A DNA stretch of 64,000 nt, from assembly GCA_963823665.1 (NCBI GenBank), contig CAWGMQ010000006.1, positions 1,088,001-1,152,000 of the forward strand. The letters run 5' to 3'. This DNA comes from an uncultured Planctomycetota bacterium. Lineage in GTDB: Bacteria > Planctomycetota > Planctomycetia > Isosphaerales > Isosphaeraceae. The notes beneath the pieces were generated by a model. The model saw only the letters and a program-made list of their open reading frames with translations. It had not been told where the DNA came from and searched no databases. This document shows positions 40,635 through 44,716 of this stretch, in pieces; the first letter of the stretch is position 1, and every line of letters begins with the position of its first letter. The translations under genes and the position numbers were made by a program.

Positions 40635-41048
40635 ATGGCCTCGAAGGAAGAAGTTGTTGCATTCATTACCGCCGAGCTTCCGCAGACCAAGTGCGTTGTC
40701 CAGGAGGTTGGCAATCGCGGATCCACGGTGTCCCACGAAATCGGTCCCAGCGAATTGCGACCTGGAGGAACGGTGGCAGGCCCGGTGCTCATGACGGTCG
40801 CAGACGTGGCGCTCTACGTTGCCATCCTCGGCGAAATCGGAATCGTCCCGCTGGCCGTAACCACGAGCCTGACAATTAATTTTCTGCGTAAGCCCGTCGC
40901 GACCAATCCCATCATCGGCGTGTGCAAGTTGTTGAAGCTTGGCAAGTCGTTGGCCGTCGGCGAAGTTTCGCTCTACTCGGAAAACGACTGCGAGCCCGTG
41001 GCTCACGTGGTGGGAACATACTCCATTCCACCGCGTGTCACATCTTGA
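40635..41048 (+). CDS. PaaI/hotdog-fold thioesterase family protein
   Basis: LRPGGTVAGPVLMTVADVALY, AVTTSLTINFLRKP and LKLGKSLAVGEV motifs; GGAG ribosome-binding site. Confidence 0.9.
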   Translation: MASKEEVVAFITAELPQTKCVVQEVGNRGSTVSHEIGPSELRPGGTVAGPVLMTVADVALYVAILGEIGIVPLAVTTSLTINFLRKPVATNPIIGVCKLLKLGKSLAVGEVSLYSENDCEPVAHVVGTYSIPPRVTS

Positions 41049-41079
41049 ATGGCCGCACAATCCCCAGAGCGGGCGCGAC

Positions 41080-41593
41080 CATCGATGACGACTTCCGCGA
41101 GTACTCGCACTTCCACGTGAACAAGGCGACCGAGCTGCTCCAGCCCCTGCACACGCCGGGGCAGGACCCGCTGCCCGACTTCTCCCAGGCGACCCGCCAG
41201 CCGTTCGAGCCCCAAGCCCACGTGATCGCGGCTGCCGTCAAGATGCTCGACGAGACGCGCCGCGGCATGCTCGTGGCGGAGCCCGGTTCGGGGAAGACGC
41301 TGATGGGCGTGCTGACCATCCACCAGCACGCCGAGCGATCGGTCCGCAAGGGCGGTTGCAACGGGAACTACAGGGCGAGCGTGCTCTGCCCGGATCATCT
41401 CCGCAAGAAATGGAAATCGGAGCTGGAGGAGACGATTCCCGGCGTGAAGGTGACGCTCGTCGATGTCGCCGATAAGGGGTGCAAGTACCTGATCTCGGAC
41501 ATGACCCTGCTGCACGACCGCTTAAAGGGCCCCAGAGGCCGGTGGAGGAAGCCGGAGGGAGCGGAGTGGTATCTCCGTCGGCCTCGCGTCTGA
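41080..41593 (+). pseudogene. N-terminal fragment of an SF2 (SNF2/DEAD-like) helicase
   Basis: RQPFEPQ (Q-motif-like), Walker A AEPGSGKT and motif Ia LCPDHLRKKW; ends before any DExx Walker B. Confidence 0.7.
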
Positions 41594-42261
41594 GCATTTG
41601 GGAACGCCGGTTTCTGGCAGAATCCGTGCTCGGACCTTTCCCGTTTATTCATTGCGATCGTGCTGATCGTTGTCGTCGCTCTGACCCGCAGGAGAAATCC
41701 AGATTTCCTGATCGACAAATAAGCCAATCCACGAAATTCGTCATATAATCTGTTTATCTGAGTCTCGATCGCTGACACCGGAGTCGGCGCGGGGCAACAA
41801 CAACCACCTCGTTCTCTTCGTCCTCATCTTTTTTTCTTCTTCTCTCTCGCCCTCTGGAACCGGGGAGTGATTCATTTGTTCATTCTTGCGCATGCTGAGC
41901 GACCTGCGCGCGTGCTCACCCGCCCCTTGCAGCGGGAACGAAGGGTCGGATTGCGTCTGGAATGGGCGATCGTGGGGCGACGGTATTCCTTGGGGTTTTG
42001 AGCGGAGACGGGCGCGGGACGACCCTGGCCAGCGCTGAGGATGAGTTTTTGCCCGGCGGACCGAGCGATCGTCGAGCGGGATTGGTGACGTTATCCTCTT
42101 TGCTTCTAAGCACTTCCATGCTGGCGAAGGGTGTGTCTGCCAGCCGTCGGACGAAGCCCGAGACCGCAATCGAAATGAGACTGTTTTTGGGCTCTGGAGT
42201 CCCATTTAACGGGTCGAGCCGCGTACGGCCCCCTCACGGCCCGTGAACTTGGGTCGAGTAA

Positions 42262-42415
42262 GGTCTGGCTTGGTTTACCTCATTATGTCGACGTTGCCAT
42301 ATGGCGACGCGCGTCAGTGGCCGTTGGCACGTTGGTGCTCTTAGCCCGACATTTAGCATGGTCCGAGAGGCTTCGACCTTGTCATTGGTGACTTGCCATG
42401 CCGGGTTTTTCCGGC
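42262..42415 (+). ncRNA. Putative IS110 bridge RNA
   Basis: Nested stems in the left non-coding end: TCTGGCTTGGT/GCCATGCCGGG, TTACC/GGTGA, ATGTCG(42285-90)/CGACAT(42347-52), CGTTGCC-ATAT-GGCGACG and GGTC..GACC. Loop segments partly match the flank and donor sequences. Confidence 0.65.
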
Positions 42416-42518
42416 GTGGTATTGATCCCGTTGGGGAGACTATTTCGTTCCCGATACCCCTCTTGGCTCGCGGCGCCTTGTCGTTTCACCACACCTACCC
42501 GCGAAGCGGAGAGATCCC

Positions 42519-43961
42519 ATGCTTGTCCCCCACGAAGAGCCGAAGAAGCCACGCAAGCCCAAGAAGCCGAGCAAACCCAAGGAGCCGACCAACAAGCCGC
42601 GGGTCAGGTCGCTTCCCGTCCCCGTCCCCGCCTCCTCTGCACCGCTCAGTGTCGTGAATCCAGACGCAGCCGGAGTTGATGTTCATTCCGACATGCATAT
42701 GGTCTGCGTTCCCGCTGACCGCGACGTTGACCCAGTCCGCCAGTTCGGTGCCAACACCGCCGATCTTCAGGAGATCGCCGTGTGGTTAAAGAAATGCGGC
42801 GTAAAAACCGTCGCGTTGGAATCCACCGGCATTTACTGGATTCCTCTGTTCGAGCTCCTCGAATCCCAGGGCTTCGAGGTTATGCTGGTCGAACCGGGAC
42901 AGCTTTCGCGTTGTGGCGCACGCCCCAAGACGGACGTACTCGACGCGCAGTGGATCCAGCGGTTGCACTCCTACGGCCTCTTACGTGGGTCGTTCCGACC
43001 TCCGGACTCCGTGTTGGCCCTGCGCGCCTACTCCCGGCAACGGCAGATGCTGGTGCGTTACGCCGCTGCTCATGTCCAACACATGCAGAAGGCCTTGGAG
43101 CAGATGAACGTCAAACTGACGGAAGTCATGAGCGACATCACGGGACTGACGGGCATTTCGATCATCGACGCCATTCTGCGAGGCCAACGCAATCCCAAGA
43201 AGCTGGCCAAACTGCGGCATGGGCGCTGTAATCACAGCGAGGAGCAGATTGCCCTAGCGTTGGAAGGGACATGGCGGCCCGAACATCTCTTCGAGCTGCG
43301 GCAGGCGCGCGAGCTGTACCAGTTCCATCATGGGCAGATCACCGAGTGTGACCAGCAGATTGAAGCCGAACTGGCCAAATTCGAAAACCGGGCGGGAGAG
43401 AAGACACAAACTGGTAAGCCACGCACGCGTGGTCGCAAAAGCAACGATGCCCGATTCGAGGCGACGGGCCCGTTGTTCCAGGCATTGGGTGTAGACCTGA
43501 CAAAAATCGAGGGAATCGGCGTGGGAACGGCCCTGATCATTCTGGCCGAAATCGGTGTGGACGTCAGTCGGTTTCCCACGGAGAAGCACTTCGCAAGTTG
43601 GCTGCGTCTTTGTCCTTCCCAGGATGAGAGCAATAAGACCAAAAGACGTCGCGGTCATCGCCAAGGGAAGAACCGAGTCGCTATCGCCCTACGGATGGCC
43701 GCGCAGTCAGCAGGCAAGACGATGACACCCTTGGGCATGTACTACCGACGGATCAAAAGTCGGATCGGTGGACTTGGAGCCGTCAAGGCGACTGCACACA
43801 AGCTGGCCTGTTTGGTCTACAGGATGCTCAAGTACGGCGAAGAGTATGTGACCCAGTCGATGGAGGAGTACGAGGCCAAGATCAAAGCCAATCTGGTGAG
43901 AGCACTCCAGCGGAAGGCGGCGGCGATGGGCTTCCAGCTCAGTCCGATAGCAACGCTATAG
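42519..43961 (+). CDS. IS110 family transposase/recombinase (DEDD RuvC-like plus Tnp domain)
   Basis: AAGVDVH, ALESTGIYW, KTDVLDAQW, IEGIGVGTALIILAEIG, FASWLRLCPSQDES and ATAHKLA motifs; intact 480-aa ORF. Confidence 0.96.
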   Translation: MLVPHEEPKKPRKPKKPSKPKEPTNKPRVRSLPVPVPASSAPLSVVNPDAAGVDVHSDMHMVCVPADRDVDPVRQFGANTADLQEIAVWLKKCGVKTVALESTGIYWIPLFELLESQGFEVMLVEPGQLSRCGARPKTDVLDAQWIQRLHSYGLLRGSFRPPDSVLALRAYSRQRQMLVRYAAAHVQHMQKALEQMNVKLTEVMSDITGLTGISIIDAILRGQRNPKKLAKLRHGRCNHSEEQIALALEGTWRPEHLFELRQARELYQFHHGQITECDQQIEAELAKFENRAGEKTQTGKPRTRGRKSNDARFEATGPLFQALGVDLTKIEGIGVGTALIILAEIGVDVSRFPTEKHFASWLRLCPSQDESNKTKRRRGHRQGKNRVAIALRMAAQSAGKTMTPLGMYYRRIKSRIGGLGAVKATAHKLACLVYRMLKYGEEYVTQSMEEYEAKIKANLVRALQRKAAAMGFQLSPIATL

Positions 43962-44456
43962 AGGAATCGATCGAGGCCGTCGCCATCGCGCTACAGGCCT
44001 GTCACAATGCTCAACGCCGCGAAGCCCACTTCTCGCATATTCGTTGTTATGGGGGTCTGGGGGAAATATCTGCGCGTCGTTCGCTACAAAATGCAGGAAC
44101 AAACCCCAAATAATCGAGTCATGTTGTTGATTGCTTGGGGAGTTCATGGGGAGTTCCATTCACATCTGCTTATTTGAATGGTGCGATGCGTGTGCCGTGG
44201 GCGTAAGCGCCTAGTGCACGAGGGCGACCCCGCACCCAGCCTTCGGCCGGTAATGCCAGGCACGCGATCAGCGGGGGTGTGGAGGGCTCTTGGCGGAGCT
44301 TGATGAAGGTGCGTGCTTGCTTTGCCCCGCGCAGTTGGGGTCGCGACCGGGATATTTACCACGAGGGCGGAATCGCAATTGGGGGAAACGAAGATTTTTC
44401 GAAAAACTGATCAGCTACTATCATCCTTTATGCGTGCGAGCGAACGAGAAGACGCA

Positions 44457-44478
44457 CTTTCGCGGAGCGAAAGGCGAC
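44457..44478. repeat. REP-like hairpin CTTTCGC-GGA-GCGAAAG-GCGAC
   Basis: Perfect 7-bp stem; second copy at 30678-30699 in the opposite orientation. Confidence 0.75.
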
Positions 44479-44716
44479 ACTGAACGGGTGATACTGGGCC
44501 AACGGCGGGTGCTCGCGGGCGAGATTTCCGCTTCGAGTTAATGCGAAGGCGAGATTCATCGGAAGCGAAAAACGCACGAACGAACCTAGCGGGCTCAGGT
44601 GGCTGGGAATGCATAAGTTGAGGCTCGAATTGTGATTGAATCAGAAAGCGAGAACGCAATGGGGCTTGACAACGTGGCCGGAATTCGCGAACGAACCCGA
44701 GGGGGGGACGAGGGAG

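Follow-up and report, generated by a model that had tools for sequence, protein, structure and literature searches.

Element, recombinase and insertion site

The window analysed here, 64,000 nucleotides of an uncultured Planctomycetota bacterium (Isosphaeraceae), holds an IS110 element at 42208-44153 (Table 1). Its left end (42208/42209) and right end (44152/44153) are the same in all eight copies that the genome carries at 97-100% identity. The reading frame at 42519-43961 is an IS110 transposase by PF01548, PF02371 and NF033542 (252 bits for NF033542, with a cut-off of 140), and it joins a DEDD RuvC domain to a Tnp domain with a catalytic serine, the combination that defines the family. S371 aligns to the ESG motif of IS621, but the residue after it in this element is N and not G. 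The conserved SG motif (window positions 43620-43635) reads SN in the subclade of this element and SA, SG or TG in others. The predicted structure of the recombinase (pLDDT 80.5) matches IS621 and ISCro4 best, with IS621 entry 8wt6 as the best fold match (E 8.8e-12). More than 7,800 protein clusters belong to the clade at E <1e-60, and a 45%-identical member is common on plasmids of Citrobacter, Enterobacter and Klebsiella (hits H38-H50, H53). The transposase ORF is unbroken in four of the eight genome copies; in the other four (L003, L006, L007, L008) the frame is broken, possibly by assembly error, and two of these are about 40 bp longer.

Table 1. Features of the IS110 element and its surroundings (window coordinates)
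Feature	Position	Strand	Remarks
Host repeat, inverted copy of target unit, outside the element	42173..42182	+	same layout in other repeat copies
Left half of target, one 10-bp unit of tandem host repeat	42198..42207	+	unit read by slot 2
Left-junction core AA	42208..42209	+	donor-type; TT on minus strand; 8/8 copies
Inner DNA stem-loop of left end	42218..42229	-	would close the proposed donor bubble
Segment covarying with slot 3	42231..42240	-	proposed 'opposite strand' of hairpin donor
Inverted-repeat left arm, offset, subterminal	42240..42249	+	pairs with 44141-44150
Position of -10-like box (candidate internal promoter)	42290..42295	+	first base G here, not T
Predicted bridge RNA, three-way junction	42302..42472	+	consensus fold; ends approximate, as inferred
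Slot 1, target guide	42324..42332	+	antisense to core and right flank; LTG in IS621 frame; 5/7 matches here
Slot 2, target guide	42349..42358	+	same sense as left flank and core, then handshake dinucleotide; RTG+HSG in IS621 frame; 7/7 matches here
Slot 3, donor guide	42376..42385	+	same sense as 42231-42240; LDG in IS621 frame
Slot 4, donor guide	42431..42440	+	same sense as right end and core; RDG in IS621 frame
IS110 recombinase, 480 aa	42519..43961	+	residues D54, E101, D139, D142, S371
Inverted-repeat right arm	44141..44150	+	last bases also read by slot 4
Right-junction core AG	44152..44153	+	target-type; CT on minus strand; 8/8 copies; AG in 51/53 families
Right half of target, next repeat unit	44154..44161	+	unit read by slot 1

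In all eight copies the insertion point is an AG between 10-bp units of a host tandem repeat, and the junctions read flank-AA-element on the left and element-AG-flank on the right. The left half of the target differs among the copies, while the element itself is constant there. Empty sites with the same junction were found (L010, L104, L112, L114), and contigs of two out of four sequencing runs start at 42208. The element thus behaves as IS110 elements do, being present in several copies, targeting one repeat family and sharing a short core with it without target duplication. Read from these junctions, the core is the dinucleotide AG (CT on the minus strand), with AA at the left junction here. 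AA on the left with AG on the right is seen in 33 of 53 families, and AG on both sides in 18. The original prediction had put the right junction near 44152, which is about right, and the left boundary at 42257. The 50 bp to the left of that boundary are common to 8/8 copies, so the left half-target proposed at 42250-42256 lies inside the element, and the target and donor reconstructed from these ends are not real; the 3-nt GAG core shared between them is a coincidence.

The target repeat has 35 matches in the genome. It is dispersed, well over 100 bp long, and carries one to three tandem 10-bp units (42100-42207 and 44154-44200 here; L104, L112, L114 and L207-L236 elsewhere), with an inverted copy of the unit about 15 bp upstream. 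Some copies are paired, 350 bp apart, and some have C for A at the unit junction and so lack the core. No shared ORF was found downstream of the repeat copies. Upstream of the host repeat, at 40922-41593, lies a truncated helicase-like ORF with a weak match to PF04851 (ResIII). What look like repeats of GGGTCGAG at the left end and of GGGGAGTTC at the right are not kept as repeats in homologs.

A bridge RNA in the left end

For comparison we took in 169 loci (8 copies of this element, 79 from genomes, 80 from metagenomes and 2 from the phylum, where a phylum-wide search added 2 of 400 genomes), of which 125 could be parsed, giving 91 distinct guide pairs. The left end carries a repeated CCG-guide-TGG unit, and the RNA has four such slots. 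Seven loci of the sister group, 26-34% identical, lack the repeat, with no hit or a single hit each. The repeated unit recalls the box C/D motifs of IS110 and TIGR RNAs described in the available text of PMC12045711.

When 33 homologs were aligned, the consensus three-way junction had 97.3% of its cells paired, compared with 40-46% in slid controls, the consensus structure being derived in part from the alignment that scored it. Two-sided changes occur in 13 of its 37 pairs, a score reached by none of 500 shuffles, and the left end thereby has the conserved, covarying secondary structure of a bridge RNA. An outer stem (42310-15 with 42465-70) encloses both arms, its support coming mostly from one covarying pair (10 two-sided changes and 10 unpaired among 33). 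Rfam returned no match in 41500-44500 at E up to 1. A nested fold differing from that of IS621 had been predicted from the sequence, and the nesting stands, in that the outer stem closes both loops, but the stems named for it do not: pairing in their helices reaches 50.0% of cells, which does not exceed that of slid controls (38% for the outer stem, 52.5% for ATGTCG/CGACAT). The words quoted for 42262-42415 are present and the minimum free energy (MFE) fold nests roughly as described, but weakly (z -2.21; -2.42 on the reverse strand). This interval also misses slot 4, and its first 40 bases are probably promoter and not RNA. The words taken for guides belong to the fixed scaffold, with TGGTGC invariant in 33/33 homologs and CATGG and CCTTG near-fixed.

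A TAnnnT motif occurs in the tested interval in 67 of 87 families (13.7 in shuffles, maximum 25; 21 for the reverse motif). This -10-like box stands 34-36 nt ahead of slot 1 in most families, and its position points to a plus-strand RNA starting near 42302. A generic scan of the element for sigma-70 promoters and terminators gave no site. One metatranscriptome contig spans 42196-42430, though such contigs reveal neither strand nor transcription. In the contigs of 4 of 23 runs we found no right-to-left joint, and neither RNA nor circle was seen; rare forms drop out of contigs, so the missing joint weighs neither way. Overall, we are nearly certain that a bridge RNA with the corrected guide map is present at this locus.

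Target guides follow both flanks

Across homologs, slot 1 matches the right flank at 1.89 of 4 positions against an expected 1.03 (z 8.7, n=73), and the identity letter-map ranks first of 24. Slot 2 equals the five bases left of the junction perfectly in 45 of 62 families, while swapped guides reach 2.1 (maximum 10); a left-junction offset of 33-41 was allowed for real and swapped guides alike, because a fixed offset of 37 nt failed for many homologs. The match of slot 1 to the right flank is looser than that of slot 2 to the left flank. The last two bases of slot 2, the handshake, track the first two of the element (z 6.6 and 4.0). The target guides of this RNA therefore covary with both flanks, as those of a bridge RNA should. 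They are also diverse, with 28 distinct versions of slot 1 and 27 of slot 2 among the 33 aligned homologs.

In the nearest relative (L047, L056; 93-95% protein identity), an altered slot 2 goes with a matching altered flank, which is a natural reprogramming. The original prediction of an IS110 bridge RNA in the left non-coding end is thus borne out by covarying guides and a conserved fold. The RNA-guided programmability it proposed is supported by the slots that track flanks and by this relative, and the covariation check that it suggested, once run among homologs, found covarying structure and target guides that follow the insertion flanks. Among the eight copies of the element itself, a T/C variant in slot 2 does not track each flank (four exact, two wobble, two mismatched). 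An A-rich slot 2 is common to many distant members (L058, L076, L080, L082, L084, L085, L173, L174, L202, L205, L206, L281-L291), and several of these are flanked by sequence similar to the end of another transposase gene, so that other insertion sequences may be their targets.

The donor guides and a probable distal partner for slot 3

Slot 4 behaves as a donor guide beside the core, with its positions 2-5 matching the right end in 93-98% (z 4-8). In none of 14 registers does slot 3 match the DNA adjoining the left junction, the best z being 2.3 (n=41). When 306 registers were scanned, its best match was in plus-strand sense and lay 11 nt ahead of the inverted repeat's left arm (z 6.9; the next best register reached 4.6), that is, in a segment about 25 nt inside the left end. 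In this fixed register slot 3 agrees with the segment at 3.82 of 7 positions against 2.49 (z 11.0 for 61 families, 12 of them parsed by a looser rule; z 9.2 for 39 distinct slots). The identity letter-map ranks first of 24 for the segment, and 19th of 24 for the duplex neighbour. With one member drawn from each of 15 clusters at 70% identity, the match was 3.45 versus 1.70 of 5 (p<=0.0033 in 100/100 draws), and the duplex neighbour gave 1.09 versus 1.06 in the same test; clustering at 60% identity leaves 3 clusters and no power.

A held-out set of plasmid and viral loci was also examined, 12 of 28 being parsed (11 distinct) with the arm located under a junction constraint. At the fixed -11 register the match was 2.45 versus 2.03 (p 0.016; p 0.11 with wobble), and when the better of registers -11 and -12 was taken it was 3.18 versus 2.39 of 5 over 11 distinct loci (p 0.0004). 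Two distant held-out loci match at 5/5, which none of 39 foreign slots reached. By eye, several alphaproteobacterial loci of this set match at -13. These data give moderate support to the pairing of slot 3 with the segment. A viral-contig hit, L237, considered as source of the third guide of ISPpu9, was a chance match.

The match is not uniform. At least 4 of 5 positions agree in some register in 36 of 61 families and fewer in the other 25, and in this element slot 3 makes three Watson-Crick and three wobble pairs (42232-42237). From the pattern of covariation, we consider the distal segment to be the probable partner of slot 3. Both donor guides, slots 3 and 4, pair with the minus strand, at sites some 25 nt from each other.

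Stems in the DNA of the ends

The left arm of the inverted repeat could pair with the right arm as an outer stem. Positions -10 to -6 of this stem are paired in 53/53 families, partly by construction, as a match at -7 to -10 was a condition in locating the left arm; compensatory swaps are seen at -7 and -6 (C-G/A-T/T-A and A-T/C-G/G-C/T-A). At -5 to -1, the part that slot 4 has to invade, the pairing is loose. Between the junction and the slot 3 partner sits an inner stem; in 47 of 53 families it has at least four Watson-Crick pairs here (10.4 in shuffles, maximum 19). The wobbles of the inner stem fit the minus strand in seven cases, the plus strand in none, and are of other kinds in five (p 0.016). 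At position -5 of the outer stem, the wobble favours the plus strand (T-G in 24/53). The inner hairpin is not unusually stable (median energy z -0.9; 17 of 53 below -1.64), and the MFE folds of the joined ends often depart from a clean bubble. With the register that the inverted repeat gives, the first core base faces the eighth base of slot 3, just as it faces that of slot 1.

Relation to characterised elements

The element resembles IS621 (PMC11208160, PMC11208158, as far as their available text goes) in its DEDD and serine residues, its left-end RNA and the guide order within the RNA; read on the minus strand, its core and handshake are the 2-nt CT core and handshake dinucleotide of IS621 (PMC11208158). 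It differs in several respects. The recombinase has 480 aa and that of IS621 326 aa. The recombination sites of the element lie inverted with respect to its gene, so that the 5' guide does not fall on the gene-sense left target nor CT on the gene-sense strand. In place of a 5' stem-loop and two successive stem-loops, the three-way-junction RNA has an outer stem closing both arms. A donor loop reading both duplex strands that flank the core was not found. For the third guide the partner is a distal segment, on the strand that the fourth guide also reads, and in IS621 it is the adjacent opposite strand. Donor and target cores also differ (AA and AG), unlike those described for IS621.

IS1111-group seekRNAs (ISEc11, ISPa11, ISKpn4), as covered in the available text of PMC11187229, share with this element a top-strand match that precedes the bottom-strand match and subterminal inverted repeats, which here are offset, with the left arm 32-37 nt inside the end. 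The guide order on the gene strand is that of IS1111, but the RNA lies upstream of the gene and theirs downstream. We found neither the long downstream non-coding RNA region nor a transposase of 330-350 aa, the size in that group.

The closest likeness is to the ISPpu9 cluster (ISPpu9, ISPsy35, ISWpi13, ISAzo22, ISCARN20), whose transposases of about 440 aa have the same motifs, the grouping resting on motifs compared by eye; ISPpu9 is classed in the IS110 group and not in IS1111. The available text of PMC12288879 reports for ISPpu9 an AG core, an upstream bridge RNA, a 43-bp left 'A box' with an inner palindrome and an internal promoter, each with its counterpart here. By eye, the A and B' boxes printed there hold the same offset inverted repeat with the same spacing (AG core, inner palindrome from +10, offset arm at +35), although the target repeat of ISPpu9 is a different one. 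In that text no guides are mapped, the group is treated as lacking inverted repeats and the role of the palindrome is left open.

Several relatives have composite ends. On a Nostoc plasmid (L201:2020-2330), a second unit resembling a left end with a bridge RNA, but with different guides, follows the element directly, which recalls either a second insertion in tandem or the orphan MITEPpu9/ssr9 arrangement. L203 and L028 (L027/L028) show an insertion in tandem, into or next to the element's own end, and L142 has four stacked copies of the right-end motif. At L204:200-620, a reading frame that by eye looks like a reverse transcriptase fragment stands in place of the left end.

At integron attC sites and the ends of IS200/IS605 elements, a folded single strand is the recombination substrate, and one exchange is followed by replication. 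These substrates are read by tyrosine or HUH enzymes, and attC is not known to use an RNA guide. Their likeness to the donor proposed below is in how it would work only.

A single-stranded hairpin donor as the preferred explanation

Taking the boundaries, the target, the guide covariation, the inverted repeat and the stems together, the best explanation in our view, at a probability of roughly 0.6, is a donor made of the minus strand folded back into a hairpin and inserted by one-strand exchange; that the donor is a single-stranded hairpin at all we hold with about the same confidence. An internal promoter in the left end would drive the bridge RNA. As covariation shows, its slots 1 and 2 choose the AG junction between units of the host repeat, and its slot 4 reads the right end. 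Because the recombination sites are inverted relative to the gene, the exchanged strand would be the minus strand. After joining of the ends, this strand may fold back, with the offset inverted repeat as outer stem and the left-end palindrome as inner stem, leaving a mismatched bubble of about 10 by 11 nt that would present the core on one side and the slot 3 partner on the other, and so mimic an opened duplex donor. Only the minus strand would be cut after the core and exchanged, and replication would complete the insertion, a copy-out and single-strand paste-in process. A minus-strand cut after the core leaves donor-type AA on the left and target-type AG on the right, as one-strand exchange predicts and as is seen in 8/8 copies and 33/53 families. 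Were both strands exchanged, one would expect the mismatch to be scrambled and a wrong sequence to be joined on the second strand.

Published work bears on the hairpin donor from both sides. IS621 is reported to be excised as a single strand (10.64898/2026.08.31.748434), and for CazIS110-1 both excision and insertion of the top strand are reported (10.1101/2025.10.25.684509). Both resemble our proposal in excising one strand, and CazIS110-1 also in inserting one; the available text of neither describes a fold-back donor or a distal guide partner. Against the hairpin donor, CazIS110-1 preferred a duplex donor about 20-fold at one junction (10.1101/2025.10.25.684509). Also against it, an ISPpu9 mutant of the left-end palindrome gave wild-type circles by end-point PCR, and a mutant in the bases adjoining the left AG shifted the site (available text of PMC12288879, whose authors suggest that the palindrome may act in integration). 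The open-access text examined from the IS110 and bridge-RNA literature (including PMC11213020, PMC8450116, 10.64898/2026.03.19.712850, 10.1101/2025.05.14.653916 and 10.64898/2026.08.14.744561) describes neither a fold-back donor nor a donor guide with a distal partner. The deviant bridge RNA structures to which the available text of 10.64898/2026.10.21.760802 refers in Fig. S12 may include the RNA of this clade.

The same guide map would hold if the donor were a supercoiled duplex circle with no free single strand, in which the recombinase extrudes a cruciform or bends the DNA into a loop, bringing the distal segment within reach of slot 3. All of the slot 3 covariation fits such a structured duplex equally, and the plus-strand wobble at -5 and -12 and the duplex preference of CazIS110-1 favour it. 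Extrusion past a 10 by 11 nt mismatched bubble would be costly, however, and the inner-stem wobbles fit the minus strand only, which leaves this alternative rather unlikely. It is also possible, but improbable, that slot 4 and protein contacts to the inverted repeat suffice, slot 3 being vestigial and its likeness to the segment a product of shared ancestry or weak selection. Recombination on half a match is reported in the accessible literature, the palindrome mutant of ISPpu9 still circularises (available text of PMC12288879), and slot 3 matches weakly in this element and in 25 of 61 families. A vestigial guide hardly accounts for a letter-specific match held in one register across 15 clusters, or for the agreement at 5/5, attained by none of the 39 foreign slots, in two distant loci of the held-out set.

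The usual geometry of the IS621 type, in which a duplex donor is read to either side of the core, would suit the common fold family and catalytic residues, the guide order and the CT core in the minus-strand frame. It is very unlikely in view of slot 3, which is unmatched beside the left junction by every measure (best z 2.3 in 14 registers, n=41; rank 19 of 24; 1.09 against 1.06). Scarcely any chance remains for the model with its boundary at 42257, a 3-nt GAG core and GCGTC, TGGTGCTC, CATGG and CCTTG as guides: the words exist and the MFE fold displays them, but 8/8 copies contradict the boundary, the guide words are scaffold, and the proposed helices are 50% paired. We return to the hairpin donor. 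Extended to the widespread IS110 clade that includes ISPpu9, the proposal that a bridge RNA acts on a fold-back single-stranded donor, with both donor guides pairing to one strand and the hairpin supplying the missing partner, seems to us slightly better than an even bet.

Implications

Whether IS110 elements move by duplex cut-and-paste (PMC11208158, PMC13626964) or by single-strand copy-and-paste (10.1101/2025.10.25.684509, 10.64898/2026.08.31.748434) is disputed in the available text of these reports. The clade described here carries a genomic signature for the single-strand side, which can be tested with few base changes in ISPpu9, an element already working in the laboratory, and the hairpin reading, if true, would explain the palindrome of that element. 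In one recent survey, according to its available text, donors are reconstructed from 25 nt to either side of the core; with the slot 3 partner at +24 to +28 here, standard pipelines with windows of this size could miss the guide. Should the hairpin reading fail, a well-mapped bridge RNA subtype with inverted sites remains, which is useful but not surprising. If it is true, this would be the RNA-guided equivalent of recombination at integron attC sites, made for cargo in single-stranded form, and a new way for the programmable recombinases of the IS110 family to recognise what they insert; a recombinase that accepts single-stranded hairpins as donors would be an insertion tool of a different kind.
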